Notes: generated by a model from the sequence alone, not told the origin. Numbered from the stretch's first letter, positions 1,746-20,927 are shown. The stretch: 64,000 nucleotides of DNA from Actinomycetes bacterium (GCA_021802485.1 JAJZXF010000003.1:1636-65635), one strand, 5' to 3'. Translations and numbers: made by a program.

Positions 1746-3079
1746 GTTGAGCGCTCTTCTGGGATCCCATAGGCCCTGGCCAGCAACTGCAGGGGATGCA
1801 GTGGCACGAGACCGGTCTCCTCTCGGATAGCTCCGTTCGCTAGATGGCAGTCACCGCACAGCTCGCCGCTTGACGCGTCCACAGACCGGCAGAGCTTTCC
1901 TGCCACCTTCTTTGCAAGAGCGTAATTCTCAGCTCTATATCCCCACGTGCCATCTATGCCGGAGCACCCTTGCAGCACGTTGACCTTCATCCCCGCAAGT
2001 GCCAGCAGGTCCCGCGACGGAGAACCCATGGTCTGGGCCCGCGTGTGACAAGACAGATGGTACGTCACCTTCTCGGGCACATGGCCATTGAACTCAGTAT
2101 CAAGTGGCCTTCCCGAGTTCCGGTGCGCTCTCAATAGGTACTCCGCTGCATCGAAAGTGTGCTCCGCGACCATTGCCGCGTCGGCCGCAATCTGAGCCCC
2201 GCGAGCTGACTCGCCCTCAATTCCACCGAGGTAGCGCGGATAGTCCTTTCGGATCACGTACGCGCATGTCGGTTGCGGCACAACAACATCACGACCAGCA
2301 CGAACCTCCGCAGCGAGAACGGTGACGTTACGTCTCGCGGAACGCCTGAACTCCGGGACGTTCCCGCCATGAAGCCACGGCGCACCACAGCATCGAGCTC
2401 CATCAGCAAGGACACACGAGACGTCGTTGCGTTCGTAAACCTTTACGAGGTCCATGCCTATCGCTGGCTCCATGTACTCCACGAAGCACGTCGGGAACAC
2501 AGCAACTTCGCCACGCGGGGATCCAATCATCGCTCCGTTCCTCCTCGCGAACCAGGTGCTGAAACGCTGGCGAGCGTACGGCGGGAGCAGGCGCTCAGAT
2601 GCAATGCCCACCGCCCGCTGCATTACACGCCGAGAGGCGGAGCCACGCTTCGACGTGAGCATGTTCACGAGTGGTGCGACAGAAGTCGATGCCTTCCCAA
2701 GAAGATCCGTGCGACCTAGAAACTGATCAGCTACGCGCTCTGTCACAGTTGCCTTGCCGCTAGAGCGACGTAGCGCATATGCCCTCGCTATCAAACGCGG
2801 AAAGTCGAGCTCCCACTCATGAGGCGGTATGTAGGGGCATTTCAGATAGCACAGCTTGCACTGGTAACACTCATCAATCACCCGGTCATGATCACTTGGC
2901 TGCATGCGAGAGACCGCGCCGTCCAACGAGTCGATGGTGTCGAACAGGGTCGGGAATGCGGGGCAAAGGTTGAAACACAGCCTACATCCGTGGCAGATCT
3001 CAAAGACGCGCTCCAGTTCCACGCGCAAATCTGCCTCGTCATAGTAGTGCTTGTGGCTCGGATCGTACGTCGTGGTCAT
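1742..3079 (-). CDS. (Fe-S)-binding oxidoreductase, HdrD/GlcF-like
   Basis: 445-aa ORF with two ferredoxin-type motifs, CHGCRLCFNLCP and CYQCKLCYLKCP. Downstream Cys-rich segments include CCG (GARCCGAPW). Confidence 0.85.
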   Translation of the reverse strand: MTTTYDPSHKHYYDEADLRVELERVFEICHGCRLCFNLCPAFPTLFDTIDSLDGAVSRMQPSDHDRVIDECYQCKLCYLKCPYIPPHEWELDFPRLIARAYALRRSSGKATVTERVADQFLGRTDLLGKASTSVAPLVNMLTSKRGSASRRVMQRAVGIASERLLPPYARQRFSTWFARRNGAMIGSPRGEVAVFPTCFVEYMEPAIGMDLVKVYERNDVSCVLADGARCCGAPWLHGGNVPEFRRSARRNVTVLAAEVRAGRDVVVPQPTCAYVIRKDYPRYLGGIEGESARGAQIAADAAMVAEHTFDAAEYLLRAHRNSGRPLDTEFNGHVPEKVTYHLSCHTRAQTMGSPSRDLLALAGMKVNVLQGCSGIDGTWGYRAENYALAKKVAGKLCRSVDASSGELCGDCHLANGAIREETGLVPLHPLQLLARAYGIPEERST

Positions 3080-3223
3080 GATATAGCTCCTCCTTAGGAG
3101 AACGTTACGCGATCATCATGAGGCCGTCGACCCCGCAGGCAAACGCCCTGCCCCGCAGCCAAGCGCCCCGGAGGCGGCGGGCCGCCGCTCCCGCCGCATC
3201 ATCCACACAGGCCAGTGCGGAAC

Positions 3224-3643
3224 TCAGGACACCGACGTAAGCCCCTGGGAGAAGCGCCCAGCATGGCTCTTCTCCGCCTTCGCAAGCGTCTCGAACCACT
3301 CGGCTATTTCATCAAATCCCTCGCCTCTCGCAGTCGCGGCAAAACCCGGGTACATCTCCGTGTACTCATACGTCTCGCCTTCAATTGCCGAGTGCAGATT
3401 CTCTTCGGTGCTCCCTACGCTGACCCCGGTCACCGGGTCGCCCACCTCCGCTAGAAAGTCAAAATGCCCGAAGGCGTGGCCAGTCTCGCCTTCTGCGACC
3501 GAGCGGAACAGAGCAGCAACGTCGGGGTATCCCTCCACGTCGGCCTTCTGCGCAAAGTACAGGTACCGCCGGTTCGCCTGGCTCTCACCCGCGAATGCTG
3601 CCTTAAGGTTGTCATGGGTCTTCGTGTCTTTTAGTGCAGGCAC
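3224..3643 (-). CDS. Rubrerythrin-family diiron protein (no rubredoxin domain)
   Basis: 139-aa ORF with a GTG start and GGAGGA about 7 nt upstream. Motifs: FAGESQANRRYLYFA, EGETGHAFGH, EGETYEYTEMY, AEKSHAGRF (ExxH diiron ligand motifs). Confidence 0.9.
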   Translation of the reverse strand: MPALKDTKTHDNLKAAFAGESQANRRYLYFAQKADVEGYPDVAALFRSVAEGETGHAFGHFDFLAEVGDPVTGVSVGSTEENLHSAIEGETYEYTEMYPGFAATARGEGFDEIAEWFETLAKAEKSHAGRFSQGLTSVS

Positions 3644-3656
3644 TGGTTCTTCCTCC

Positions 3657-3688
3657 TTGGTTAGTTAGTTAGTTGATTGGTTGGTTGG
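3657..3688 (-). repeat. 8 x tetranucleotide repeat directly 5-prime of the rubrerythrin Shine-Dalgarno
   Basis: The minus strand reads (CCAA)3 TCAA (CTAA)3 CCAA, then GGAGGA-AGAACCA-GTG. It fills half of the 64-nt gap between the fur-like stop and the rubrerythrin start. Confidence 0.8.
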
Positions 3689-3707
3689 TACTTGACTGCG
3701 TGGTCGG

Positions 3708-4181
3708 TCACTTGGCTGCTTGGTCCGTTGGCGTTGGCTCAGGCTGAGTACACGCAGCGAGCTCAATCCGGCAGACATCGCAATACCCCCTGAAGACGAC
3801 CTCAGCACTTCCCAGTAAGAAGCCGTGATCCGCGCCCGAAGGCACCTCCAGTTGGGAGTAGTCAGCATCGAGATCAGCCACCTTGCCACATCCACGACAG
3901 ACCAGGTGGTGATGGGGACTCTCGACGTTCGGATCAAAACGCATCGTGCCTGTACCGAGATCGAGGGGTAGCACCTCTCCCATTTCCGCAAGGTCATTCA
4001 ACGTCTGATACACGGTCTTGAGTGAGATCGTCTCCATCTCAGACCTCGCTGCAGTGTAGACCGCCTCCGCTGACGGGTGGCTGGTGTCTCCCTGGATGAT
4101 CCTGAAGATACACTGGCGCTGCGGCGTCACCTTCCTGCCGTTCGCTCTAAAGACCTCCGCCAGTTCCTGGGGACTACGCAC
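3708..4181 (-). CDS. Fur-family metalloregulator (PerR/FurA-like by context)
   Basis: 157-aa ORF with a GTG start. Has a winged-helix segment (KVTPQRQCIFRIIQ ... SAEAVY ... ISLKTVYQTLNDL), HHHLVCRGCG and a C-terminal CDVC (two CxxC pairs). Sits immediately upstream of rubrerythrin. Confidence 0.9.
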   Translation of the reverse strand: MRSPQELAEVFRANGRKVTPQRQCIFRIIQGDTSHPSAEAVYTAARSEMETISLKTVYQTLNDLAEMGEVLPLDLGTGTMRFDPNVESPHHHLVCRGCGKVADLDADYSQLEVPSGADHGFLLGSAEVVFRGYCDVCRIELAACTQPEPTPTDQAAK

Positions 4182-4333
4182 AATTGGACCTTATCACCAC
4201 TAACTGTTATCTGACAAGTCATTACATTTGGCTATGTACGGACCAGCGACGTCCACCAGAACCTGCTCCGCACGCTGCACGTGCGTGTGCGCCTTGCTTT
4301 GAGTACCCATCGGGAGGCTAACCTCTTGCCGTT

Positions 4334-5467
4334 ATGCCAACCACTAGTGAAAACGACGCGTCAGAACACCTTCCAAGGCGGGCGAGGCGCCAAGCCGGCG
4401 GCACCTCGAACCGCCTGTGGATAGCTGTACTTGCTACCTTCATACTGTTGATTGCTGCGTTGATCGTTATCGCTGTACGAGCGGCATCTACTCATCCGCA
4501 CGTCCATGGGAAGGTAGCCCCAGTGCCCACGCTACCCACAACCACAGCGTCGAACAGCACGAACACCAGCGGCATTTGCCCCTTGACCGGATTGCCAGCG
4601 CCCAGAGGATCCATCCCTGCAAGACCTGCGCTCGCGATCAAGGTGGACAACTACTCCGCAGCTAGGCCGCAGACCGGGATCAACCATGCGGACATCGTCT
4701 TCGAGGAGCCGGTGGAGGGTGGCATCACGAGGTTTGTCGCCGTCTTCCAGTGCCATGGCGCGAAGCTGGTGGGTCCGATCCGCTCTGCCCGCTTGGTCGA
4801 CGTCGACATCCTATCCCAGCTAAGCGATCCGATCCTTGCGAACATGGGCGGTATTCCCCCGGTTATTTCTGCTATCCAGAACGCGCCCATCATCGAGGAG
4901 AACATGCTGGGGCTCGGCCAGGTGATTCATCGGAACTACAACAGAGTGCCACCGTACAACACGTATGCGAGCACCTCAGCGCTCTGGGGACTCCATTCGG
5001 CCGACACGACCGCGCCTGCCCAGCTGTTCACATACTCCAATACCGTCCCAGCTGGGACTCCCGCAGCAAGCGTCCACGTTCCGTTCTCCTACGCCTCCGA
5101 CGTCACCTGGAACTACGACCCCACAACCCACCAGTACCTGCGCTATTACAACGGCACGACACCGGCGATGCTGAGCGACGGCACTCAGATTTCAGCGGCC
5201 AACCTGGTCATACAGAGCGTCCGCGTCACCTACGGACCATGGGTCGAAAACTCCCTTGGCGGCCTCGAGGTCGTCTCGCACATGATCGGCTCCGGGCCGC
5301 TAATCGTCGTACGAAACGGAGTTGCAGTCTCTGGCACGTGGCAACGCCCTTCTCTTACCTCTCCAACCGTGCTCACCGCGGCCAACGGTTCGACCATCGC
5401 GCTCCAACCCGGCAACACCTGGGTCGAGATCGTCCCCAACACAGTGAGCGTTACGACCGCACCGTAA
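4334..5467 (+). CDS. DUF3048 (YerB-like) membrane-anchored protein
   Basis: 377-aa ORF with an N-terminal TM segment (LWIAVLATFILLIAALIVIAV). The core ALAIKVDNYSAARPQTGINHADIVFEEPVEGGITRFVAVF is typical of DUF3048. Confidence 0.8.
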   Translation: MPTTSENDASEHLPRRARRQAGGTSNRLWIAVLATFILLIAALIVIAVRAASTHPHVHGKVAPVPTLPTTTASNSTNTSGICPLTGLPAPRGSIPARPALAIKVDNYSAARPQTGINHADIVFEEPVEGGITRFVAVFQCHGAKLVGPIRSARLVDVDILSQLSDPILANMGGIPPVISAIQNAPIIEENMLGLGQVIHRNYNRVPPYNTYASTSALWGLHSADTTAPAQLFTYSNTVPAGTPAASVHVPFSYASDVTWNYDPTTHQYLRYYNGTTPAMLSDGTQISAANLVIQSVRVTYGPWVENSLGGLEVVSHMIGSGPLIVVRNGVAVSGTWQRPSLTSPTVLTAANGSTIALQPGNTWVEIVPNTVSVTTAP

Positions 5468-5777
5468 ACAGCATACGAAGGCTTCCAGCTAAGCGTAACT
5501 TACTCTCACACCAGGACAAGTTCTCAGAGGGGACTTGCTCGCTTACCCTGGCAACCAAGTCATAGCCTCAGCAGGTCCATCCACCATCTCGGGTAGCTTC
5601 GATGGGCGCCAATTGGTCAGTTGCCGGCAGAAGAAGCCCAACACCCGGCGTCAAACCCTCCTCACGTGCTGAAGAAGCATCTGCACGGCATCGTCACGCA
5701 CCACAAGCAAGCGCGTTGTACAGATCATTAGGATCGATGGGGTTCTCCCACCGGCACAACGAGTAGGAGGCTATTTC

Positions 5778-6044
5778 ATGGCAGAGGTGATCGGCGCACA
5801 AATCGAGCAGCTGCAACAGCTTGAGGTCACTTTCAAGAACCAGGCCGGAAATGTCGAGTCGATGACCAAGGGGATCACATCCCAGCTCGGTTCAACCCAG
5901 TGGGAAGGTCCCGCTGCAGATCGGTTCCGAAGCGCTTGGTCGGGCGAGTTCGCACCCATGCTGAACAAGCTCGTAACCGCCCTAACCGAAGCCAGCCAGG
6001 AAATCGACCGTCGTCGCAATGCCCTGATCCAGGCTGGGAGTTGA
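5778..6044 (+). CDS. WXG100-family (ESAT-6-like) type VII secretion protein
   Basis: 88-aa ORF with GTAGGAGG 6-8 nt upstream of the ATG. A central W-x-G (TQWEGPAADRF) lies between two predicted helices. Confidence 0.85.
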   Translation: MAEVIGAQIEQLQQLEVTFKNQAGNVESMTKGITSQLGSTQWEGPAADRFRSAWSGEFAPMLNKLVTALTEASQEIDRRRNALIQAGS

Positions 6045-6134
6045 ACAAGTTGCGGCCCTGAGCCCTATCTTACGGAAGGCGAATGTGGCCGCAATCCGAT
6101 CAACGCGAACCCAGTGGTAACACTCGTACGTGGG

Positions 6135-6173
6135 CTTCCAGGCGAAACAGCGCCTGGAAGCAGCGCCTGGAAA
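6135..6173 (+). repeat. 10-bp perfect hairpin with duplicated 3-prime arm
   Basis: CTTCCAGGCG (6135-6144) pairs with CGCCTGGAAG (6151-6160). A second copy, CGCCTGGAA, lies at 6164-6172. It is 90 nt downstream of the WXG100 stop and no U-tract follows. Confidence 0.4.
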
Positions 6174-6643
6174 TGGTGTTAATCTAGTGGCTAATCGGAT
6201 CGAGGCCATCCTGCTCCTAGAACCACATGTCGCGCGGCGGTGCTGCAAACGAGCGCCCAACTACTATCATGCATTGCGTGGAACTGGGCGACGTACGCAC
6301 CGCCAATATTTGTTGCGACCCTTCCCAGAGACGGCTGCCTGCTCCCCCGGGATCATTTCGCCTTGCTTTCGGTGTCTGCGGCATCGCTAAAGGGTCGGTG
6401 GCTTTATTGACTTTGGAAGCCACAGCGGAGCCCAGGAAAGGTCGGCGTTTCGTCCGTGATCAATATCATCTTCGACCCCGAATCGCCCGGCTCTCGCTCG
6501 CACAATCAAGATCAGCCTTATCTGCAAGCGCAAGAGCTTGCAGCAAGCTCTACATGCCAACCCGTGGAGGCGCCCATGCCTGGCGGGAATTAATGTGATC
6601 TCACGGATCTTGTTCCTCGCTCCCGCGATCGGCGGTTGATTCG

Positions 6644-6877
6644 ATGGCTATCGACCCCAGCGACTCCCAGGACCTTGTCGATGAGATCCGCAAGGCGATC
6701 GCAGCGGATGCCGTAGGTCTTGCAGAGGTCGTGGATCTCCTTACACTCCTGCGAATGGAGCGCTTATCGCGCACATCAGATGTCCCACGAGAAGCAATCT
6801 GGCATCAGATCTTCACCCGGATAGACGAGGCTCCCCGCACAACGCACCCTGACGACGGCAACGCGATGCCCCGCTAA
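6644..6877 (+). CDS. Hypothetical small protein
   Basis: 77-aa ORF with non-repetitive acidic/helical composition, a weak SD and no recognisable motif. Confidence 0.3.
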   Translation: MAIDPSDSQDLVDEIRKAIAADAVGLAEVVDLLTLLRMERLSRTSDVPREAIWHQIFTRIDEAPRTTHPDDGNAMPR

Positions 6878-7442
6878 ACCGACACGTGATTCTTATCTTT
6901 TGAAGCCTCCCGGCCCTAAAGGGCCGAGATTCCGTGTCGATGCCCTGTCTCCTTCCGATACTGCTGGTAGGCCATAGGGAGCGCCTGGTTCCCGGGGCAT
7001 GTTGTTCATGCCGCCACCGATGTAGCTGTGGTGGCCTGGTCCGGTACCGGAATGCCGCCAGACACCTCTGTCGCACCACGACTGCGCCGGGTGTGACGGG
7101 CCGTGATGCGCGCCGCTGATCGTCGCGAACGGCGAGGTCGGCCTCGGTGCTTGGTACTGTTCGGCCTCGACAACCCTCCGGCTTCTTGGAGGTGAGGTGC
7201 GAACGCTCGCCACATGGACGCGGCTCCCTCTAAGTCGCACGTGTCTGTGCTGGCACTATTGCAGCACGCGTCCCTACCACCTACCAGCCCAGTCCGATGT
7301 TCGCTATCGCTGCCCTGAGTGGCCGAGTTTGCGCTCACAAACAAACAGATCAACGACCACAGCCTCGGTCCGCTTCGATCACGCGTAAGCGCATGCTGGC
7401 ATCGGCGCCACCAGCATTCTCGCCTGTTCTGAGAAACAAAGA

Positions 7443-8336
7443 CTATACCCGAGCAGCTTCCTGCGAACTTGAAGGAAAGAAGGATGCGAGATCCGCCAGC
7501 AGCTGCGCCTTTGACGTCTGGAATACGTCTACCAACTCATCGCCTCCTCCGCCCACAAGAGATCCGGTGGCTGGCAGCCGCCAGAGACCCAGTTCGCCAG
7601 CATCAGCCCATGAAACCACGCCCCCCTCGACGGTCGATCCGGCGCCAAAGTGCATAACGGTTGTCACAACGAATGCTTTACAGGCCGCCAAAGCCTCTAC
7701 AAGCTGGCTCATGAGCGACTCGTCATCCCTGCCACGACACAGCTGTAACGCCTCGTCGCGAGCTCCAGAGTCCGCGAGGTCGCGTATCCGCATTAGAAGA
7801 GAACGTGGCAGCGAGAGGATGCCATCCCCTATCATCGGTCGGTCCGAGAGCTGAGTACGCAACTGCAGCCGACCGGGAATCTCCTCAGCTCGAAACGGAG
7901 TGAATCGAAAGACGCCATCGCAAACCACTGCTTGCTCGACCGCGGCCTCAGGCTGCGCCAGGATAAACCACGTATCATCTGCTTCCTCCGTGCGACACGA
8001 GATCTCAACGGACAGCGATGGCACACAGATCAAATACACGAGATCCCGCACAGCCTCGCGGGCTCTGGACTCTGGGGTCTGCGCCGTTGCGACAATCGGC
8101 TCACCATCTCCCGCGGGCGCGGAACTGACAATACGTCGTGCTACCAGGCTACGACGGGCAACTGCTGCAGCATCATCGCTTACGAGACTCAAGTCCCCCG
8201 CGGTCCTCGGAGGAGCGATTGCCAGATGCCTTGCAAGGACCACCAGCTCCTCGCTCGAGAAGTCAATCGAAAGCTCCACCATCCCTACCCTTTCATCCTC
8301 GTCCCAACAAGCTCTCTTTGCAGGTGCGTTCGTCAC
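7443..8336 (-). CDS. Hypothetical cytoplasmic protein, possibly EspG-like T7SS chaperone
   Basis: 297-aa ORF (alternative start MVELS at 8285) with no TM or signal peptide. Its layout loosely recalls EspG proteins (ELSIDFSSEELVVLARHLAIAPP near the N-terminus, VVSWADAGELGLWRL near the C-terminus). It lies between two WXG100-type genes. The family call is weak. Confidence 0.4.
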   Translation of the reverse strand: MTNAPAKRACWDEDERVGMVELSIDFSSEELVVLARHLAIAPPRTAGDLSLVSDDAAAVARRSLVARRIVSSAPAGDGEPIVATAQTPESRAREAVRDLVYLICVPSLSVEISCRTEEADDTWFILAQPEAAVEQAVVCDGVFRFTPFRAEEIPGRLQLRTQLSDRPMIGDGILSLPRSLLMRIRDLADSGARDEALQLCRGRDDESLMSQLVEALAACKAFVVTTVMHFGAGSTVEGGVVSWADAGELGLWRLPATGSLVGGGGDELVDVFQTSKAQLLADLASFFPSSSQEAARV

Positions 8337-8403
8337 AATCTAGCACTGGGCGCGTTGAAATGATCAAGGGAGTAGTTAACTCCGCAGACGCCGGATAATC
8401 GGG

Positions 8404-8850
8404 TTGAACAATCGGAAGGACGCTACATTGCAGACACCGGTCGGGGATGCAACTGCCTTGGATCAAGCGGCAAGTACCTGTCGTCAACGGGGTAGCGAAA
8501 TCTACTCCCTCGCAAGTTCTCTAGCCAACGAGACGACGTCGCCATCATGGGTCGGCCCCAGAGCTGACCGCTTCCGCAATGACATGGGAGCCATGAAACA
8601 CAACCTTGATTCGATCGCAGCTGAACTCGAGACCCTCGCTTCGCAGTTCTTGGCATTGGCCCGTGAAGTAGAGGGGGAGATGAACCTGCTTCAAAAGATT
8701 GAACAAGACGTTCTTCAATTCATGGACTCCTTCGAACCACTTCTCGACATGCCACCGCCGCCATGGCAAGGCACCCCCTGGGGTCCGGGACATCTCCCTG
8801 GCCCGTTCGATCCCGCATGGAAAGCTGTAGCAAAGGCCTTCGGCCTGTGA
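8404..8850 (+). CDS. WXG100-like protein with C-terminal Pro/Trp-rich extension
   Basis: 148-aa ORF with a TTG start. The W-x-G (SPSWVGPRADRFRNDM) is flanked by helical segments (LDSIAAELETLASQFLALAREVEGEMNLLQKIEQ). The extra tail reads PPPPWQGTPWGPGHLPGPFDPAW. Confidence 0.7.
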   Translation: MNNRKDATLQTPVGDATALDQAASTCRQRGSEIYSLASSLANETTSPSWVGPRADRFRNDMGAMKHNLDSIAAELETLASQFLALAREVEGEMNLLQKIEQDVLQFMDSFEPLLDMPPPPWQGTPWGPGHLPGPFDPAWKAVAKAFGL

Positions 8851-8896
8851 CGTCCACCGCTTTGCGCACACTCGCCTTCTTGCGAGGCTCTGAATA

Positions 8897-10714
8897 ATGG
8901 CCTACTGGACCCCAACCAGCTGGGCTACCGCAGTGCTCAAGTACTTGGGCGCTCCGATCACCCAGAACAACATCGACAACATCACTCGCTGGATGCGTGC
9001 GGAAAAAGGAGCCGACTGGTTCAACCGGAACAATCCCTTGAACTCATCGGTCGGCACGGACTCCATCGACGGCACGGGTTCGTATCCGAACCTCGGTGTA
9101 GCTGCAAGGAACGTCGCGGGAATGATCAACCAGGGGAATATGAGTGGGATCAAGCAGGCACTCATGTCGAACGCACCGCTTCCCACCTTCTCTGCAGCGG
9201 TGGTCGAGTCTCCGTGGGCGAGTTCACATTACGGCGGAAACCCCTCCTACTTCACCGACGTTCCGCCCTTGCCTAACACCGAAGCGCCAGTGTCAGCAGG
9301 AACTACTGACCTCACCCCCCCCACCACGGTGGACAGCAACCCCACGACCTCAACCGGCACAGGATCGACCGGCACAGGATCGACCGGCACGGGAACCTCA
9401 GCGGGCACTTACACCGTTCAGGCAGGCAACACTCTCTGGGGTATTGCGAAGCAATACGGCATCCCAGTTGCCGCACTCATTGCGGCCAACCCGCAGATCA
9501 CCAATCCAAACCTGATCTTTCCCGGAAACGTAATCAATATTCCCCAGCAGTCCTCATCTCCCAGAACCCCGCCACCAAGACCGAAACCGGTAACCAAACC
9601 CATTACAAGACCCGGATCACGAGGTTCCGGCGGGCGGATATTCGTCGACATAAATGCAAACCTTTCAATGGCTGGGCGGATGCAGGCGCACGCCAACCAA
9701 CTCGGCGATATCCGCCTCAGCTTGCTCAGCGTCGCTTCACGGACTTCACCGCCACCACCACAGGTAAGTGGACTGCTCAATTCGCTCAACAGACTTCTAG
9801 ACCAGCTGAATACGGTCACGACCAACCTGCACGCTCAGGCAAAAGGAGTCATTGACAACGCTCGCGGTCTCGCAGCCGAAGAGCGCCACGCAACAAGCAA
9901 CTATACCAATTTGGGACACCAGATCACATGGCCTGATATGATATGGGACGTCCAGTACGCAGGCAGTGTGCCTGGCTTTCTTCGGCCCCTCTTCGAGTTT
10001 GTCGACGCGGAGCTGGCATCCCTGGTGTCACTGCCAAAGACCTCGTTCCCAAGCGTTCTGCCATTGCACACTGCACCCGTAGAGGTGCCAACGGCGCCAG
10101 TCGTTTCGTCAACGCCAGTGTCGGTCGGACCAGTCGGATCCGGTATCCTTGCCACCTCGATCGCGACCGCAGGTGTGACGGTGGCACAAGAGGAGGCGAA
10201 CTTCGCCAAGTCACAGATCTATTGGAACGGTCCTTACGGACGGGTGCTGCTCAATTCATCACAATGGCTGGGGGGCCATGGGATTGATGTGCACTCCGAC
10301 GCCGGAACGAACTATAAGGGGCATTATCAGTGCGTCACACTCGTGACGGACCTCTTCCGTGAGAGGGGTTGGATTCATGGCTCGTGGTTGGGCAACGGCA
10401 ACACCCTCCTCAATTCTCTGCCGCCTGGAGTAACGAAACAGCTCAACGGCCACATCACCCATCTCGTCCCCGGAGATGCAGTAAGCATGCAGGTCGCACA
10501 TGACGGTGTAACGGACCAATACGGGCACGCCGTTGTGGTTAACCAGATCATCAAGTGCTCCAACGGCTACATGGTGCAGTTCGTCAATCAGAATTCACCA
10601 ACCGTCTACACCTACGGCACGCTGAGTCCTTCCGGAGTTCTGACCATGAACCCCTCAGGCTCCTGGTCCTACGACATTATTGGTGTGGCACACGCCACCG
10701 CCAACACGGGCTAA
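8897..10714 (+). CDS. LysM + CHAP domain peptidoglycan hydrolase without recognisable signal peptide
   Basis: 605-aa ORF, 46 nt after the WXG-like gene. LysM: YTVQAGNTLWGIAKQYGIPVAALIAANPQITNPNLIFPGNVINIP. C-terminal CHAP-like domain has a Cys in HYQCVTLVTDLF and a His in YGHAVVVNQI. The N-terminal 130 aa is unassigned (NNPLNSS motif). A helical middle segment is present. The N-terminus MAYWTPTSWATAV is not Sec/Tat-like. Confidence 0.8.
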   Translation: MAYWTPTSWATAVLKYLGAPITQNNIDNITRWMRAEKGADWFNRNNPLNSSVGTDSIDGTGSYPNLGVAARNVAGMINQGNMSGIKQALMSNAPLPTFSAAVVESPWASSHYGGNPSYFTDVPPLPNTEAPVSAGTTDLTPPTTVDSNPTTSTGTGSTGTGSTGTGTSAGTYTVQAGNTLWGIAKQYGIPVAALIAANPQITNPNLIFPGNVINIPQQSSSPRTPPPRPKPVTKPITRPGSRGSGGRIFVDINANLSMAGRMQAHANQLGDIRLSLLSVASRTSPPPPQVSGLLNSLNRLLDQLNTVTTNLHAQAKGVIDNARGLAAEERHATSNYTNLGHQITWPDMIWDVQYAGSVPGFLRPLFEFVDAELASLVSLPKTSFPSVLPLHTAPVEVPTAPVVSSTPVSVGPVGSGILATSIATAGVTVAQEEANFAKSQIYWNGPYGRVLLNSSQWLGGHGIDVHSDAGTNYKGHYQCVTLVTDLFRERGWIHGSWLGNGNTLLNSLPPGVTKQLNGHITHLVPGDAVSMQVAHDGVTDQYGHAVVVNQIIKCSNGYMVQFVNQNSPTVYTYGTLSPSGVLTMNPSGSWSYDIIGVAHATANTG

Positions 10715-11126
10715 GTGCTGCGAGCCGCTTTTCAACGGCCATTCACAACCTCTACGGGATCACTCTTAGAGCCCCGGTAGAAGTGAACTGGGTGAGCCTG
10801 CAGATCGCCTTGCAATCCATGTTCCGCCGTAGCTGGTAGAAGTTGCACAGCACAGCAACGAGACGGGCCGCTCAACCGACCCCCGTGAGCCCTTGTTGGT
10901 TGTCTCTGCGTCATGCTTCGCTCGGGTTCAGCAGGGCGAATCATGGGTGCCCTGTCCCTTTCGCGCGTCCTTCTTCCCATCATCCCGGTCAGTGAATTTC
11001 CGACACGTCACACCCACTCTATCTTGAGAATGCCCCTGGAGGTGTGTCGTTGGCCGTGTAGCTGACCAGAACTCTTATCGAGCACCCAGCCCCGAAGGTG
11101 CTTCATGCCACAGCGACTCTTTGGGT

Positions 11127-11873
11127 CTACGTGGAGGCTATCCCCACCATCGGTGCGTTCAGATGCCTTCCACCCATTGATCCGTAAAACCTAGCGTCTC
11201 CGTAGTTGAACACGCCCCCGTCCGATGCAACTGTCCAGTACCCTTGGTCATCCGGGGTGGATGCGATGCTCACCATGGGTGCGTTCAAAGGCTTTCCACC
11301 CTGTGAGCCATAGAAGTGCGCGTCGCCAAACGCAAAGACCCCACCGTCTGCTGCGACGAGAAGGTATCCCTTTCCATCAGGGGTCGGCACCATGCCTATG
11401 ACGGGCGAGTTCAGGTGCCTTCCACCCATCGAGCCGTAGAACTGAGCGGTACCAAAGGCGAACAGCCCACCGTCGGAGGCGACCAGCCAATAGCCGTTGC
11501 CACCTGGGGTTGGCGCCATGCCAACCACAGGCGCGTTCAGGTGCTTTCCGCCCATAGAGCCGTGGAACTTGGAGTCTCCGTAGCTGAAGATGCCCCCGTC
11601 TGCAGCCACGGTCCAGTACCCGCACCCGCGAGGACCAGACGCGATGCCGACCATCGGCGCGTTCAGGTGCTTGCCACCCATGGACCCGTGGAACGCTGCA
11701 TTGCCGAAGCTGAAGATGCCCCCGTCCGATGCGACGGTCCAATAGCCTTTGCCGGAGGGAGTGGCCGCCATCGCCACCATCGGTGCGTTCAGGTGCTTGC
11801 CACCCATGGACCCGTGGAACGCTGCATTGCCGTAGCTGAAGATGCCGCCGTCTGATGCCACGGTCCAGTACCC
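11127..11873 (-). repeat. 6 x 126-nt (42-aa) coding tandem repeat, diverged copies
   Basis: Period read from the protein: GYW[TL]VA[SA]DGG[ILV]F.[FY]G.A.F[YH]GS.GG..LN[AS]P[MV]VG[MI]A..P... Confidence 0.8.
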
Positions 11874-13238
11874 CATAGACGGCACAGATGAGACCTGCAG
11901 AGCGCCTGTGGCCTCGATCAGGTTGCCCTTTGTCGTGGTTGATGTGCCCGAATAACAGGGTGGGGTTGAGTAATAGTAAGAACCCAGTGCAGCGCACGCT
12001 GATGCACTTTCACATGACACGGACTGAAGGGCGTTATAAGGGGATGGAACTTGTCCAGTACCCAGGGTCGTGTCCACGTTCGGGCTGGAGACGACTGACC
12101 AGGTGGAGCCGTTGTAGGTCTCAACGAGGGTGAGAGTCGGAGAAACGGATCCAACCAGGGTGTCGACGGAACCCACCGCTGCGCAGAATGTTGCGCTCGT
12201 GCAAGATACGCTGTCCAGGAAGTTCCCCCAGCCAGGATTGGGATTGGGATTGGGACTAGGCGTGATGGACCACGAGGAGCCATCATAGGTCTCAACGAGT
12301 GTACCCACACTATTGTAGCTGTTGACAGAGTAGGCACCAACGGCTTCACAAAACATCGCGCTGACGCACGACACTCCGGAATACAAATAATTACGTGATG
12401 TGGAGCCACTAGGGTTGGGATTGGGCATAACGCTCCACGTGAAGCCGTTGTAGGTTTCGATGAGACCTTTAGTTGAGTTAGGCAGGTCGTAACCGCCAGC
12501 AGCCATACAGAACATGCTGCTGGCACACGACACGCTTAGCAAGCGGACAATACCATTTCCTTCGTTGGGACTCGGTGTAATCGACCAGGAAGAGCCATTG
12601 TATGTCTCGACGAGGGTAGCACCAGCTTGGTTGCTGGCAGTCGTGTAATAGCCAACGGCTTCACAAAACTTTGCGCTGGAACACGACACGCCAGTCAGAA
12701 TGTCTTGATCGGTTGCAGATGTGTTAGGGCTGGGCGTAATCGACCAAGACGAGCCGTTGTATGTCTCGACGAGGGTATGATATGGGGAAACAGCTCCAGT
12801 GCTCCAAATGCCGACAGCGACACAGAACGACGCGCTCGGACATGACACAGCGTTGAGCGAGCCATAGCCGTGCCCATTCGCTATTTTGGGACTGGGCATA
12901 ACGCTCCACACGTGACCGTTGTAGGTCTCGATGAGCGCGCTATACGTATTCGAACTAGCTGTCACACTAGTTGGCCTCGGCCCAACTGTGACACAGAATG
13001 ATGAGTTCACACAGGAGATGCCACGAAAATAAAATCCGCCAAAAGCCAAGCCAAACCGTTGTGCCTGCGGGCTTGCGACAATCGCCCACGTTCCCGCTGT
13101 ACCTGAAGCAGCTGCGCTCGCCATTGGCATCCCCGCGAGTCCGGCCGACGCCAGAACAACGCAGAGGCAGGTGCCGACCATTGCCGCTGCGCGATAGATC
13201 GATCTTGGCGCGGAAGACTCCTTCGAATGAGGGTCCAT
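11127..13238 (-). CDS. Secreted two-module repeat protein (Cys-pair repeats + six GYW/ASDGG 42-aa repeats)
   Basis: ORF 11127..13250, preferred ATG at 13238 just after the upstream stop. Signal-like N-terminus ([29 protein letters not shown]). Carries about 8 repeats of the ..SC.S..FC.AVG ... [17 protein letters not shown] type, then 6 repeats of [36 protein letters not shown]. Confidence 0.85.
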   Translation of the reverse strand: [703 protein letters not shown]

Positions 13239-13240
13239 CG

Positions 13241-15657
13241 CTAGCCCCACTGCTCAGCAAGGGTCTGGCTGATGCCCGAGGCGCTCATCTCGAATCCTGT
13301 TGCGAGGCAGCTGGCAGAAGAAGCACACGTCACGCCGTTGAGGGCGTTCATCGTAGAACTCGGGTTCGGGGTCGTCGGGATTGACCAAGAAGTTCCGTTC
13401 CGGGACTCCGCGAGGGTCTCTGTCGCGCCCGATGAGTCGACGTAGCCACCGACTGTCATACACGAACTCGACGACGAACACGAGACGCCATAGAGGAAGT
13501 TGTTCAGTGACGTAGAGGTGTTTGGACTTGTCTGGGTGACCCACGATGTGCCGTTCCAGTACTCGATGAGGGTCTGGTAGACACCTGAGGAGTCGATGTA
13601 GTCACCGACTGCTTCGCAGGAAGTCGATGACGCACATGAGACGCCGTAGAGGAAGTTGTCCTGTGACGTGGAGGTGTTTGGACTTGTCTGGATAACCCAC
13701 GATGTGCCGTTCCAGTACTCGACGAGGGTCTGTGGGGCACCTGAGGAGTTGATGTAGAAGCCCGTTGCTACACACGAGCTCGACGAGACACACGAGATGC
13801 CGTTGAGGTAGTTAGCAGAAGTGCTTGGATTCTGGCTTGTCATGGTGGACCATGATGTGCCGTTCCAGATCTCCGCGAGGGTCTCAACCGGCTGCTGGGT
13901 CCCGCTCGTGGTGGGTGCTGCCTGGGAGTCACCGACCGCTATGCAAGAAGTGCTCGACACACAGTCGACCCCCATCAACTGATTGAGCGAGGATGGAGAC
14001 GTGTCGGGATTCGGGCTGTTGACGATGGACCAGTTGCTACCGTTGTACTGCTCTATCAGGGTGTAGTCGGCGAAGCCGGTTGTGCTGAACTGGTTCGAAG
14101 GTACGTTGAAGTACGCACCTGCTGCAACACAGAAGCTAGAAGACACACACGATACTCCGTTGAGCGAGTTGTCGACTGGGGGGGTGCCATTACTCAGGCT
14201 TGTGTTATTCGGACTTGTGACTATTGACCACGTGAAGGTGCTCGAGTTCCAGGACTCAACGAGGGTCTGGAGGTAGCTGAAGTGGCCAACCACGTCGCAG
14301 CTCGTAGAGGTGGTACACGATATCGCTCTCAACTGGTCACTAAAGGATCCCTGAGACTCCGTCGTCCCATTTGCGCTTGTGGAAATAGCGAACCCGCTGT
14401 TGTTGCCGGACTCGACGATGGTCTGGTAGTCGTACCCTGGCTGAAACGATCCGTCCGCGTAGCACGAAGTCGAAGATGAACACGAGATGCCGTAGAGGTA
14501 GTTGTTCGCAGGCGCTGTGCTAGACGGCCCACCGCCCCCGTTCACGCCACCGCTCTCGTTCCCGCTGGAGATGACACTAGCGTTGTTGGCGCATGTACCG
14601 GATAGACACCAATAGTCCACCAGGGTCTGGTCAACGCCCAGACTCGTGTCGTAGTAGTAACCAGCTGCATAGCAGCCGTCACTTGAAGGACACGAGATGC
14701 CATACAGGTAGTTGTTTCCAGAGCCCACGTTCCCAGCTAGTGACCCACCGACAGCCCACTTGGTGGGAGATCCGGCCTCATATAGAAAAAGCACCTGGTC
14801 CACACCGGAGGAGTCCACGTAGTAACCGGCCGCGAAGCACTCGTTCGATGACACACAAGACACTCCATAGAGGTAGTTGTTGCCGTTGTTGGCATTACTC
14901 GAAGTCGCCACGGTCCAGCTGGTGCCATTCCAGTAGTCGATGAGTGTTTGGGCGAGGCCTGAGGAGTTGACGTAGTAACCCGCTGCGTAGCACTCGGTTG
15001 ATGACACACAGGTTGCGCTGTTCAGGTAGTTGCTCTCCGACGTGGAGGTGTTCGGACTCGACTGGATCGACACCGTTGGGGGTGAGGTTGAGCCGTTGTA
15101 CTGCTCGATGAGGGTCTGGTAGACCCCGGAAGAGTCCACGTAGTCACCTACTGCTGTACACGAAGTCGATGACGTACACGAGACGCCGTTCAGGTAGTTG
15201 CTCTCCGATGTGGAGGTGTTCGGACTCGACTGGATGATGGACCACGAAGTCCCGTTGTACTGCTCGATGAGGGTCTGGTAGACACCTGAAGAGTCCACGT
15301 AGTCACCTACTGCTATGCAGGAAGTCGATGACGTGCAAGAGACGCCGTTCAGGTAGTTGTTCTGGTTCGTACCGTTGTTCTGACTTGAGTCTTGGGCCCA
15401 GGTGGGTGGCCCTCCGGAGGTGCCGGGGGACTCGGTGGCTGCAAGGGTGGCTTTCACAGCGAAGTTGCCTGCTGAAAAACATGTAGAGCCTGAACAACTC
15501 GTGCTATAAAGAGCATTGTCTTGCGTTGCGCTAGAGTTCGCGCTCGTTACGCTGGACCAGCTCGGAGATGTTGCTGATGCACCCCCCCCAGAGTGAGAAG
15601 TGCGCTAGCTGCTATCGCAGCTGTCGCTATCGAACGTGGGAATGCCCTTTTTCGCAT
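13241..15657 (-). pseudogene. Secreted Cys-pair repeat protein split by a frameshift at a G8 tract (pseudogene, phase-OFF allele or assembly error)
   Basis: ORF 13241..15457 (738 aa) has about 14 WNGTSW...SPN...N.L.GVSC.S.T.C.AVG.Y repeats but no signal peptide. The same frame stays open upstream to 15604 and encodes another repeat. A 35-codon ORF from the ATG at 15657 (AAGAGG 8 nt upstream) encodes MRKRAFPRSIATAAIAASALLTLGG, a typical signal peptide. It leaves frame at G8 (C8 on plus, 15582-15589). One extra G would fuse both parts into an 805-aa precursor. Confidence 0.75.
15582..15589 (-). repeat. Homopolymeric G8 tract (C8 on plus strand) at the signal-peptide/mature-domain junction
   Basis: Read directly: a-cccccccc-a at 15581-15590. 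Frame analysis is given in the previous feature. Confidence 0.95.
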
Positions 15658-15993: not shown

Positions 15994-18900
15994 TCAGCGA
16001 GCCACCTGAACGAGGCTTACCCCGGAACGTTGCGCAAGGTATCCGCGCCCTGGGGGAAACCGCACAGTAGAACGCCGGGGGAACCGCACGCCGAACAGGT
16101 CGCCATCGACATCCACATCCGGCATGATCACCAAGCCGTGCTTGGCCTTTCGCATCTCAGACAGCCACCCTGCGTACGCGCGGTGCGCTCTATGGGTCTG
16201 GCAGGCGGCACAGATAATCGTCGTCTGCTCCCGGGTCTTTCGGACCAGCTTCTCGAGATGGTCAGCGACGGGTCCTTCCAACAGCTCCTCTGCATCGTCG
16301 ATGATCACCACTGTGGGAGCTACGCTTGAACCCTGCGACGAAGCCACCATGTCCAGCACCGCCGCGTAAACCTCGTCCTGGCCGCTTGCTATCGATGTCC
16401 AGGTATCCAGGGCAGTCAGCGGCGTCCTGCGCGGCGCAAGCAGCACCATCGGTCCTTCCCGGAAGGCTGCCCTCAGACCCCGGGCCAGCGTCGCAAGAGC
16501 GACTGATCGCCCGGATCCATCCGGGCCGCAGATGAGAAAGGTAGGGTTCTCATCTAGACGCACCGCCATGGGGCGGAGATCCGCGCCGTCGATAGCAAAG
16601 GGGATCCTGCGCATGGCAGAAACAGGCGCGGGGAGGACGTCCGCTGGTATATCATCGCCCAATACCTCCACCGAAGGTGCCCGCTGCCCGTCGGAAGCAC
16701 TCAAGGCAGCGCCAAGCTTCTTGATGCATTCAACCTGGGCTCTGCCTGAGGCGTCGTCTCCGAGCACTGCCACATGGATCTCCGCCCCGCTGGAGAGGAA
16801 GCCTCTCCCTGGCGGGAGATCGGCATCGCCCACGTTCCGCAGGCCAAGCCACTGGTACTCATCAGCGTCCCCCATGCGCAAGATCACCCGGCCTGGTATC
16901 GAAGCAAGAAGCCGGTTCGGCACGCCGCCCCTGCGGTCCACGCTGATCACGAGGTGGACCCCGACAGACGATCCGTCTGCTGCGATCTGGGCCAGCCGAT
17001 CGATCTGCGCTCCAGCATCAAGATCGCCGAACACATCCACAAAACCGCTGTAGCCGTCGAGCAGGAGGACCACCCACGGGCTACGCTGTCCCTCCGGTTG
17101 CCCGGAGCGGAGCTCCATGAACGAGCCCGCTGCTGCGCTCCCAAGTGCAACCTGGCGCTCGGCCACGATACGCTCCAACAGAGCGAGGATACGTTCAGCT
17201 CGCTCGATGTCGCTCGCCGTCGCGACTCCGCCGCACTGGGGCAGGGCCTCGATCGCCTGAAGCCCGCGAGTAGCGAAGTCCAGGCCGTACAGATTGAGAT
17301 CCGAGGCGCTCCATCGCTCGGAGAGCCCGGCCGCAATTGTCCGCAAGAGCGTGGTCTTGCCCGAACCTCCCGTGCCAAACACCAACAAGTGGCCCAACTC
17401 GTCAAAGTCGAGCACCAACGGATCCTGGCTCTGACTCTCAGGCCTGTCCACAACCCCAGCTACCGTCGAGAGCCGCTCCCTTGGAATGGACTCGCTCGCA
17501 AGTGTCGCTAGCGAGTAGCTCGTAGCGAGCGGATCCAGCCACGGACGTCGTGGCAAGCTCGACCCGGATGCGCTCCAGGCCTCGCACACCGCAGCCACCA
17601 ACCGTTGCAAATCGCTTTCACCGGAACGATCCGCCTCCGATTTCGGCCAGCTGATTGGCGAGGGTCCGAACGCAATGGGTCGCACGTTGACAACCGGCTC
17701 GCTCCCCGCCTCGCTACGGCGCCCTCCGACATAGGCGACCTGCACCGGGTGAATGTCGCTGCCCGAACGTATGAACGCACGGCCTACGAGGTCGTCTGGA
17801 ATGCGAGCCGCATCTGGGACAGTCAGGATGTCTACCGACTCCTGGTCGTCGTGAAAGCGCAAGGAGATCCGCACCGGGACGTTCGTGCGTATCTTATCGT
17901 CGATAATGCCCGCTGGGCGCTGGGTAGCGAGCACCAGATGTACCCCGAGTGAGCGCCCACGAGCTGCGATGTCGACCACACCGTCAACAAATTCCGGGAC
18001 GCTTGTCTTCAAGAACGCAAACTCATCAAAGACAAGCAACAACGAGGGTGGTGCATGTTCTGGATCACCCTGCTCGAAGTCGATGAGGTTCTTGTACCCC
18101 GCGGCAGCGAGGAGATGCTCCCGACGGCGAACCTCTGCCTCCAAGGACTCGAGCGCGCGCCTCGCAAGATGGCCGTCGAGGTCGGTAAAGTACCCCGTGA
18201 CATGAGGCAGCTCGGTGCACTCCTTGAAAGCCGCTCCGCCCTTGTAGTCGATGAGTACGAACGTGAGGCGCTCCGGCGGATGGGAAGCTGCAAGCGCGGC
18301 AACGAACGTCTGCAAGAGCTCGCTCTTGCCAGCCCCAGTTGTTCCACCCACCAGCATGTGTGGTCCTTCTCGCTGGAGATCGAGCACTTGTGGGCCATCA
18401 GCGTTAACACCAATGATCCCGGGAAGACCAATGCGCGATCGGGCCCACCGGCTCGCGATACCCTCTGGGGTTGGGTCCTCTAGCGCGAGAAGTTCAAGCA
18501 GGTTGACCTGGCGCGGGAGCTCGCTGCCACGACCGCCCGCAGTCACATCACGGAGCGGCGCCAGTGCCAAGGCTACCTTCTCAACCAGGCGCACTGGCAC
18601 CAAATCGGCGAGGATCCCGTTTATGGTCACCCCTTCACGCACCTGGACCAGTGACAGCTCCCCCGCATTTTCGGGCGTCGATGACAGGGTCACGAAATGC
18701 GTGCACTCCCCCGGCAGTGACCTGACCGCTTCAGACACGACCAGTGCGGTCACTCCAACCGCTGGGCCTGACTCGAGAACCCGGGAGAGCATCGGCCGGG
18801 AAAGCTCCATGTCTCCGGCTATTACGAGAAGGACGTGAGGCATATGCCTGGACTTTCCAGCGCCGAAGCCCCCTCCAGCCGGTTCCTGACGCGTCCGCAC

Positions 18901-20376: not shown

Positions 20377-20927
20377 GATACCACTCCGTCCCTGTGCGCC
20401 TGACGCTCGCTGTAGGCGGCCCTCAGCGCCCTCAGCGCCCTGTACGTTAGCGCCCGGACGGCGTCTTCATTCGAGTCGAGCACCACAGCGGTCTCCGCCA
20501 CGGTCAGCTCCTGGAGAAAACGCAGTTCAATCACACTCCTCTGTCGTGTTGGCAGGGACGCCAAGACGCTGAGCGCCTCCGCAATCCGACCCCGGCTATA
20601 CTGCGCCTCACCGTCTTGGCCGCTCTCGATCAAAGAGTCGGCCACCAGCAATCGCTCATCAAGAGGAATCAACTCGGGTCGCCTGCGGCGGCTTTCACCT
20701 ACAACCAAGTTGTATGCGATCCTAAAGAGCCATGCTCGCTCAGGAAGGCCTCGATCCTCGTAGCGGCTGTAGGCCGCAAACGCACGACAGAACGTCTCCG
20801 CGGTGAGATCCTGGGCCGCCTGGGCTCCGACCCTACGACACAGGAACCCAAAGACGCCGTCAACGTTCTCGCGGTAGATCGCATCGAATGCGACATTGCC
20901 CACACGCTCAGCGCCCACGAGCCTCAT
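20373..20927 (-). CDS. ECF-type sigma-70 family RNA polymerase sigma factor
   Basis: 184-aa ORF. Region 2 (ERAWLFRIAYNLVV) and region 4 HTH (LPTRQRSVIELRFLQELTVAETAVVLDSNEDAVRALTYRALRALR). Its stop overlaps the ATPase GTG start (GTGA at 20373-20376). Confidence 0.9.
   Translation of the reverse strand: MRLVGAERVGNVAFDAIYRENVDGVFGFLCRRVGAQAAQDLTAETFCRAFAAYSRYEDRGLPERAWLFRIAYNLVVGESRRRRPELIPLDERLLVADSLIESGQDGEAQYSRGRIAEALSVLASLPTRQRSVIELRFLQELTVAETAVVLDSNEDAVRALTYRALRALRAAYSERQAHRDGVVS

Follow-up and report, generated by a model that had tools for sequence, protein, structure and literature searches.

A peptidoglycan hydrolase without an export signal as candidate cargo of a T7SSd-like system in an uncultured Acidimicrobiales bacterium

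Known substrates of type VII secretion systems (T7SSs) carry a helical targeting domain that is N-terminal, as in LXG and PE/PPE proteins, or C-terminal, as in two recent cases. The T7SSb modules built from an LXG toxin and Lap proteins include TelA-D of Streptococcus intermedius and EsaD with EsxB/C/D of Staphylococcus aureus (PMC13492133, PMC11217815). In the S. aureus substrates TslA and TslM, the orientation is reversed, with an N-terminal lipase and an LXG-like domain that is C-terminal (PMC11217815; PMC13560087). EssH, a CHAP peptidoglycan hydrolase required by the T7SSb of S. aureus, carries a Sec signal peptide of 24 residues and is expressly described as not being a type VII substrate (PMC13059805). 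The survey of T7SSd (Garrett, Higginson and Palmer 2024, PMC11217815) named an Rhs protein and an LXG-like small toxin as candidate substrates and made no mention of LysM or of a peptidoglycan hydrolase. The means by which T7SS cargo crosses the thick wall of Gram-positive cells have yet to be settled (PMC13492133). Here, we analyzed a stretch of 64,000 nucleotides (GCA_021802485.1, JAJZXF010000003.1:1636-65635; hereafter, the window) from an uncultured Acidimicrobiales bacterium (genome of 2.86 Mb, 97% complete), in which a small gene module encodes a 605-aa multidomain peptidoglycan hydrolase without an export signal. We consider it likely, with some reserve, that this hydrolase is muralytic cargo exported by a T7SSd-like machine and targeted through an internal helical hairpin and a WXG-type partner protein. 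To our knowledge, EssH is the only characterized T7SS-linked hydrolase; a described T7SS-exported peptidoglycan hydrolase was not found in the literature searched, which is not proof of absence.

The hydrolase gene (8897-10714, plus strand) occurs as a single copy in the genome. Its product consists of an N-terminal domain (N-domain, aa 1-125, 8897-9271), a Thr/Ser/Gly linker, a LysM domain (aa 171-217, 9407-9547), a Pro-rich linker, two helices (aa 246-340, 9632-9916), a less conserved stretch, and a CHAP domain (aa 441-605, 10217-10714). The LysM and CHAP domains had been recognized from the sequence alone in the first-pass annotation, and family and structure searches bore both out. The LysM domain matched PF01476 over aa 172-216 (E 3.2e-15, 56.3 bits against a cut-off of 20.9) and LysM structures in Foldseek with a probability of 1.0. 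All five aligned family members matched the CHAP family PF05257 (best E 3.8e-11), with Cys479 (codon 10331-10333) and His544 (codon 10526-10528) invariant; the window copy alone stayed below the cut-off of 26 bits (23 bits, E 1.1e-4), and Foldseek gave weak matches to the CHAP domain of LysK on a low-confidence model. The AlphaFold2 model of the full-length protein was poor (predicted local distance difference test, pLDDT, of 42.7), LysM and weak CHAP matches being all that Foldseek gave for it, and the alignments behind both AlphaFold2 models used here, of the hydrolase and of a 279-aa accessory protein, were shallow.

The outer domains of the hydrolase belong outside the membrane, because relatives of both carry N-terminal signal anchors. 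In approximately 70 Microbacteriaceae genomes, the N-domain, which is chromosomally encoded in many members of this family, forms the C-terminal part of 215-250-aa proteins that open with a signal anchor, and the nearest stand-alone CHAP relative (268 aa, genome G346) has a signal/transmembrane region at its N-terminus. The hydrolase itself had been described as lacking a Sec/Tat-type N-terminus, and we likewise found no signal peptide and no membrane helix, the maximum 19-residue hydropathy being 1.37. Its N-terminus, MAYWTPTSW..., is kept from residue 1 in all homologs and has neither a basic n-region nor a hydrophobic core. Since an in-frame TGA closes the frame two codons ahead of the ATG, no start-codon correction can expose a signal peptide. 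For the window protein, anchoring in the membrane was also rejected, as no segment exceeded 1.4 in the 19-residue hydropathy scan. Judged from its sequence, the hydrolase is without the usual route to the place where its domains act.

The N-domain, which had been listed as unknown, had no match among Pfam, PHROG, or PDB sequences, permissive Pfam scans included. It was modeled as all-alpha, with five helices (pLDDT 60-85 within the otherwise poor model). An exhaustive HMMER search recovered a family of 586 representative clusters at E<=1e-3, a widespread wall-associated family that has no Pfam model. Among 54 members scanned, 13 contained NlpC/P60, and PG_binding_1, PG_binding_3, VanY, CHAP, and CW_binding_2 were also found; the N-domain is read as a wall-associated module because of its co-occurrence with these wall-acting domains. 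In the scanned members, Trp32, Asn46, and Pro47 were invariant and Glu36 (codon 9002-9004) was nearly so, and cleavage of glycan by this domain is a possible function. A metagenome scan with the hydrolase alignment retrieved N-domain proteins only. Some metagenomic N-domain proteins lie in compact one-directional gene arrays, one of which (L120) has a terminase-like open reading frame (ORF). An origin of the hydrolase from a phage endolysin or a conjugative element was rejected, as the N-domain had no match in INPHARED (50,697 phage records), PLSDB (72,556 plasmids), or IMG/VR, and PHROGs matched the LysM part alone.

The three forward ORFs reported in the first-pass annotation (5778-6044, 8404-8850, and 8897-10714, all plus strand) are present in the sequence, and the 46-nt spacing it gave between the second WXG gene and the hydrolase gene is correct. 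The first ORF encodes an 88-aa protein whose earlier designation as WXG100 was borne out by a W-E-G motif and a match to PF06013 (E 9.2e-9, 35.9 bits against a cut-off of 27.3), and we assign it as a core substrate of the TsdA/EsxA type; its match to TIGR03930 of NCBIfam had an E of 2.5e-10, yet fell under that model's own cut-off. The second ORF exists, and its length of 148 aa was revised: homologs open with MQTPVGDA, which corresponds here to a TTG at 8428 with a GGAAGG ribosome-binding site ahead of it, so that the likely product has 140 aa (8428-8850, plus strand). This protein, hereafter the partner, had been described as a second WXG-type protein with a Pro/Trp tail. A W-V-G motif and a conserved Trp/Pro-rich C-terminal tail agree with that description, and the protein has a C-terminal extension of 45 residues, but the PF06013 match was sub-threshold (E 1.4e-3, 19.3 bits against 27.3). 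The partner was connected to the 88-aa family by phmmer at E 1e-5 to 1e-3, and an 87%-identical homolog is labeled 'WXG100 family type VII secretion target' by NCBI. The whole 2.86-Mb genome has two WXG100-like genes, both inside this module. Full-length relatives of the partner occurred in two of the 401 Acidimicrobiia genomes searched; word-indexed protein searches for homologs of the partner or the hydrolase gave close relatives only, and a metagenome scan with the partner alignment gave none.

Approximately 5 kb downstream of the module in the window, Pfam and NCBIfam scans identified an FHA-bearing EssC/TsdC-type ATPase of 1460 aa (tsdC, 15994-20376, minus strand) and an extracytoplasmic function (ECF) sigma factor (20373-20927, minus strand), accompanied by a divergent Ser/Thr kinase gene. 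The locus has the gene set by which T7SSd is defined in the 2024 survey, namely an FHA-bearing EssC-like ATPase, a WXG100 protein, and a Ser/Thr kinase. The gene order WXG100 protein, small protein, 279-aa protein (minus strand), partner, and hydrolase is kept in the window and in four further loci, namely L110 (GCA_054636835.1), L001, L014 (JAJYWA010000008), and L002. The family compared here comprises these five close genomes and one or two distant loci, which are related genomes and not independent observations. A convergent tsdC, with the sigma gene alongside, has its stop 130-210 bp from the end of the hydrolase gene in L001 and L014. Two large repeat-protein genes (11127-15657, minus strand) separate the hydrolase gene from tsdC in the window, and they are regarded as a local insertion into a compact locus because they are absent at the same position in L001 and L014.

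Sequence divergence was uneven across the module. The 88-aa WXG100 protein was 100% identical in L001, 90% in L014, and 83% in L002. Between the window and L014, identity was 44% for the hairpin, 46% for the 279-aa protein, 51% for the partner, 67% for the ATPase, 77% for CHAP, and 83% for the N-domain. The hairpin is the fastest-evolving structured part of the hydrolase (44-76% identity). Together with the partner and the 279-aa protein, it has diverged faster than the catalytic domains have, which fits a co-evolving interface. The same figures are compatible with a hydrolase that takes the same export route and acts on the producer's own wall, as a dedicated peptidoglycan-remodeling factor that is EssH-like in function and self-exported like flagellar FlgJ. 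Its catalytic domains (77-83%) are more conserved than the ATPase (67%), the single-copy gene is strictly syntenic with the T7SS core in five genomes, no immunity-like gene is adjacent, and EssH shows that a CHAP hydrolase can be needed for T7SS assembly across the wall; EssH, however, relies on a Sec signal (PMC13059805). If the sole recognizable large cargo were a wall-cutter, the machine would also be left without an evident output beyond WXG100.

The distribution of hydrolase genes bears on the same question. EssC-like ATPases were found in 69 of the 401 Acidimicrobiia genomes, and none exceeded 38% identity over the N-terminal half that served as the query. Apart from the stand-alone CHAP protein of G346, the hairpin-CHAP part was detected among these 401 genomes in that of the window only, and a search of the 10 kb around 14 other T7SS ATPase genes of Acidimicrobiia gave no hydrolase gene. 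The best-matching ATPase locus, L096 in genome G196 (ATPase 38-48% identical), has on one strand the genes for a sigma factor (49%) and the ATPase, then those for a probable small-acidic-protein homolog, a 52%-identical WXG100 protein, a kinase, and a partner homolog, followed by those for a 349-aa protein, an approximately 158-aa ORF with a weak YbjN match, and a homolog of the 279-aa protein. The partner homolog is 32% identical overall (E 4e-23) and shares the tail W-x-G-T-P-W-x-P-G-x-L-P...D..W, so that the pattern W..G...W.P..LP...D..W is kept as far as this genome. In the 349-aa protein, the N-terminal 75 residues could be aligned with the hairpin of the hydrolase (E 5e-4), with R-I-x-x-D and I-R-L-x-L-L in common, and the remainder consists of a hydrophobic segment (19-residue hydropathy of 2.01) and a Gly/Asn/Pro-rich tail, with no hydrolase domain. 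From this comparison, the partner, hairpin, 279-aa protein, and small protein form a conserved set, and the enzymatic part of the cargo differs. As the trio of partner, 279-aa protein, and small protein accompanies a non-hydrolase cargo in G196 and the 14 other ATPase loci are without a hydrolase, the enzyme is not a general requirement of these machines, and we regard a dedicated own-wall remodeler as rather unlikely. The G196 ATPase (L096 9330-13668, minus strand) is carried by two adjacent ORFs (tblastn pieces 13668-11737 and 11726-9333), which could represent a split EccCa/EccCb-like arrangement or a frameshift.

A weaker case was found in genome G289, in which the gene for a tailed, partner-like protein (hhalign 89%) precedes, with a gap of 4 nt, that for a protein of 398 aa. 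The latter combines a helical N-terminus with an alpha/beta-hydrolase-like region (G-H-S-H-G) whose Pfam match was sub-threshold (E 0.003). This module (L211, G289:C61 1435-3063, plus strand) lies on a contig other than that of the genome's T7SS ATPase match, and a 309-aa protein with a weak MspA-porin match is encoded upstream of it.

The partner-hydrolase pair shares a promoter-like motif with the core WXG100 gene. The ECF-type motif GTCAC-N16-CGTTG lies 59 nt upstream of the WXG100 start (5693-5718, plus strand) and again 70 nt upstream of the TTG start of the partner (8332-8357, plus strand). GTCAC-N16-CGTT(G) occurs exactly twice per locus in the window, L110, L001, L014, and L002, ahead of the WXG100 and partner genes, and it likewise precedes the WXG100 gene and the partner homolog in G196. 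Two blocks, with CGTT in the -10 element, are a typical arrangement in ECF sigma promoters, and the adjacent ECF sigma factor probably reads these sites. A third exact copy of GTCAC-N16-CGTTG in the window (23952-23977, plus strand), without the extended form of the motif, lies in the region of a MoxR/DUF58/transglutaminase-like operon. In G196, the motif is additionally present at site 4052, upstream of a 260-aa gene of lipoprotein-like character, and at site 14301, in divergent orientation to the sigma gene.

The helical segment that had been placed at about aa 250-340 of the hydrolase was recovered in the AlphaFold2 model as two long helices (252-281 and 288-338) with an S-P-P-P turn between them, and this hairpin is the proposed docking site of the partner. 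An LXG domain was not detected by Pfam in the 605-aa protein, whose N-terminus is globular and whose helical element is internal and approximately 95 residues long, compared with about 190 for the N-terminal domain of LXG toxins. In the L002 homolog (2676-4601), a glycine-zipper insert of approximately 35 residues (GxxxG repeats, hydropathy of 1.81) directly precedes the hairpin, and in the L014 homolog (10001-11815), a hydrophobic helix (1.94) directly follows it.

Coiled coils combined with CHAP or NlpC/P60 domains are established in the division hydrolases PcsB, CwlO, and RipC. The two helices could accordingly be a regulatory coiled coil of this type in a protein that is not a type VII substrate, being released by lysis, a holin-like route, or an unrecognized signal, with the proximity to the T7SS reflecting co-regulation only. 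Besides the familiarity of the architecture, this explanation draws on the lack of a WXG or LXG sequence signal in the hairpin and on the closest metagenomic N-domain proteins, which have no signal peptides and no WXG100-like or ATPase-like gene detected on their contigs, one of these contigs having a terminase-like gene. However, the known hydrolases of that kind have signal peptides and the window hydrolase has none, and its gene lies 46 nt after a WXG-type gene, with which it is co-transcribed under the same promoter motif as the core WXG100 gene. Moreover, a hairpin-like N-terminus reappears on a non-hydrolase after the G196 partner homolog, and the N-domain is unmatched in the phage, plasmid, and IMG/VR collections. 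We therefore hold this explanation to be improbable.

More doubtful still is a reading in which the hairpin protein belongs to the structure of the machine itself and has the partner as a permanently bound subunit, the hydrolase domains having been gained by fusion in this clade and the enzyme staying attached. The hydrophobic and glycine-zipper segments beside the hairpin in L014 and L002 (1.94 and 1.81), the strongly hydrophobic segment (2.01) after it in G196, and the joint retention of the partner, the hairpin, and the 279-aa protein in distant loci would all suit a machine part. Against this, hydropathy does not rise above 1.4 in any segment of the window, L001, and L110 proteins, so that membrane anchoring is not conserved, and a membrane helix between LysM and CHAP would split the wall-acting domains across the membrane. 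The published core set of T7SSd (TsdA, C, D, H, and I), in which TsdH is a single-pass membrane protein and TsdI a large Ig-rich envelope protein, also has no such protein (PMC11217815).

Several observations weigh against export through the hairpin and partner. The hairpin was modeled with low confidence (pLDDT 35-43); its homology to the two WXG families was rejected, with hhalign probabilities of 2.4% and 0.1%, and it shows no detectable similarity to WXG100 or LXG profiles. Its match in G196 is weak (27% identity over 75 residues), and the N-terminus of the G289 cargo did not match the hairpin profile. On inspection of the homolog alignments, no conserved YxxxD/E or FxxxD export motif was found. 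The extended promoter pattern CGTCAC-N15-SCGTTG, found at only two sites of the 2.86-Mb genome, both in this locus (the second at 8331-8357), against one for the reversed control, counts in favor of the link to the secretion system, but it was derived from these same two sites, so that conservation in other genomes is the only independent evidence. In agreement with the first-pass annotation, which saw no immunity-like gene downstream, none was conserved near the hydrolase gene across the loci; what lies downstream of it is the convergent tsdC in the case of L001 and L014 and, in the window, a gene for a repeat protein. A conserved small exported protein beside the hydrolase was also not found in the loci compared, which weakens the specific case for an antibacterial effector.

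Taken with these reservations, the first-pass proposal of the hydrolase as a candidate type VII substrate is backed, on sequence evidence, by synteny, the shared promoter motif, and the distant-locus comparison. Under this proposal, the ECF-type promoter, probably read by the ATPase-adjacent sigma factor, would co-induce the core WXG100 gene and the bicistronic partner-hydrolase operon. In the cytoplasm, the 140-aa partner would bind the two-helix hairpin of the hydrolase to form a WXG100-like helical bundle, and the ATPase would recognize either the Trp/Pro tail of the partner or the bundle itself; both the complex and its recognition are what we infer from the arrangement. The 279-aa protein, and perhaps also the 77-aa acidic protein, may serve as accessory or chaperone factors. 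Once outside the membrane, LysM would anchor the enzyme on peptidoglycan, CHAP (Cys479/His544) would cleave stem peptides or cross-bridges, and the N-domain would possibly act on glycan. Variable cargo behind a conserved partner gives the module the look of an effector system, and strict single-copy synteny, highly conserved catalytic domains, and the lack of an immunity gene give it the look of a housekeeping wall-opener. As to whether the target is the wall of neighboring cells or that of the producer, we lean only slightly towards the former.

The accessory gene that the first-pass annotation gave as 297 aa does exist as an ORF on the minus strand (7443-8336), but its likely start is at 8282, which yields 279 aa (7443-8282, minus strand). 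This start was set from the homolog alignment, in which three homologs all begin at the equivalent of Met19 of the ORF. The two WXG genes do not bracket this gene within one operon, as it is divergent from the partner-hydrolase pair. The protein has no signal peptide or membrane helix according to sequence analysis and is assigned as a cytoplasmic accessory protein and candidate chaperone or adaptor. It is retained in L110, L001, L014, and L002 and in G196 (hhalign 97.6%, E 4.5e-12), and it had no match in Pfam, NCBIfam, PHROGs, or a PDB profile search. Its AlphaFold2 model, built from five sequences, had a pLDDT of 61 and a predicted template modeling score (pTM) of 0.55, with a confident C-terminal alpha/beta half and a low-confidence N-terminal half. 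Foldseek of this model against the PDB gave a best E of 0.07, and EspG was not among the top 50. The loosely EspG-like layout attributed to it earlier is thus unsupported by the family scans, the PDB profile search, and Foldseek on the predicted model; a remote likeness to EspG may exist, the N-terminal half of the model being of low confidence. Retention beside the non-hydrolase cargo of G196 argues against a CHAP-specific immunity protein and points to a general accessory role as a putative chaperone, adaptor, or machine part.

The spacer of 1.4 kb between the WXG100 gene and the 279-aa gene contains a gene that the earlier reading had overlooked (6644-6877, plus strand), encoding an acidic protein of 77 aa and recognized by its conservation in the same slot. 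Homologs in this slot were 89% identical in L110, 56% in L001, 41% in L014, and 30% in L002, and a probable homolog lies in the tsdC to WXG100 interval of G196 (L096 9044-9265, minus strand; hhalign 87%, E 4e-6). The 77-aa protein had no Pfam match. Every copy of the module encodes a protein of this kind, which is acidic, helical, and 72-81 aa in length and has a P-R-E-A-I-W motif. It may be one more accessory factor of secretion, or it may act on the adjacent ECF sigma factor as a small soluble anti-sigma factor. The same spacer also has an insertion of approximately 450 bp (about 6900-7354), which is one copy of a dispersed repeat (approximately 360-470 bp, at least 25 copies in the genome, 76-93% identity, many at contig ends) and is missing from the equivalent spacer of the closest relative, L110. 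A shorter piece of the repeat (about 7261-7366) has a dozen further genome copies, and the equivalent spacer of L001 contains a fragment of an IS200/IS605 TnpA (Y1_Tnp). The G+C content of the window is approximately 60%.

Compared with the known systems, the module resembles LXG-Lap modules in layout and is not a member of that family. As in those modules, a large enzyme without a Sec signal directly follows a small WXG100-like partner in or beside a T7SS locus, an additional cytoplasmic accessory protein is encoded nearby, and the enzymatic part of the cargo varies between loci. In contrast, the module here has no LXG domain according to Pfam, its helical element lies between enzyme domains inside the protein rather than at the N-terminus, there is one partner instead of two Laps, the FxxxD motif and an adjacent immunity gene are lacking, and the host is an Acidimicrobiales bacterium with a T7SSd-type ATPase. 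TslA and TslM are alike in showing that a helical targeting domain can lie elsewhere than at the N-terminus and that the signal is completed by partner proteins (PMC11217815; PMC13560087); the module here differs in that the helical element lies mid-protein and the cargo is a peptidoglycan hydrolase, not a lipase. The comparison with EssH made in the first-pass annotation holds for the CHAP domain, with its catalytic Cys and His, and for the position of the gene at a T7SS locus, and EssH likewise has an uncharacterized N-terminal domain, needed for function, but it fails on the Sec signal, which the window hydrolase does not have (PMC13059805). EssH also differs in being without LysM, a helical hairpin, and a WXG partner, and no sequence relationship between it and the 605-aa hydrolase was detected beyond membership of the CHAP family. 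The PE/PPE-EspG and EsaD-EsaE systems similarly have an accessory gene, coding for a cytoplasmic protein of about 280 aa here, next to a helical-bundle substrate pair, whereas the 279-aa protein gave no EspG-like sequence or fold signal in the tests run.

T7SSd shares with this locus the FHA-bearing ATPase, the WXG100 protein, the Ser/Thr kinase, and an Actinomycetota host, while the components listed in the survey (PMC11217815) include no ECF sigma factor, tailed partner, 279-aa protein, or small acidic protein. The compact ECF-type motif would define a regulon of two promoters. Tentatively, and at somewhat less than even confidence, we propose the hydrolase as a third topological class of type VII substrate, in which a mid-polypeptide targeting hairpin flanked on both sides by folded enzyme domains, with wall-binding and glycan-side modules on the N-terminal side and the CHAP peptidase on the C-terminal side, would be read through one WXG partner, the Trp/Pro tail of which would act as the export signal. 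The hydrolase would also be the first candidate for a T7SS-exported peptidoglycan hydrolase and would be under dedicated ECF sigma control. An internal hairpin with cargo on both sides, if true, would widen the rules by which substrates are found and would bear on how a bulky multidomain protein passes the channel. A hydrolase that travels through the T7SS would, in turn, either give this system a new class of antibacterial effector or serve as a wall-opener that the system exports for itself.

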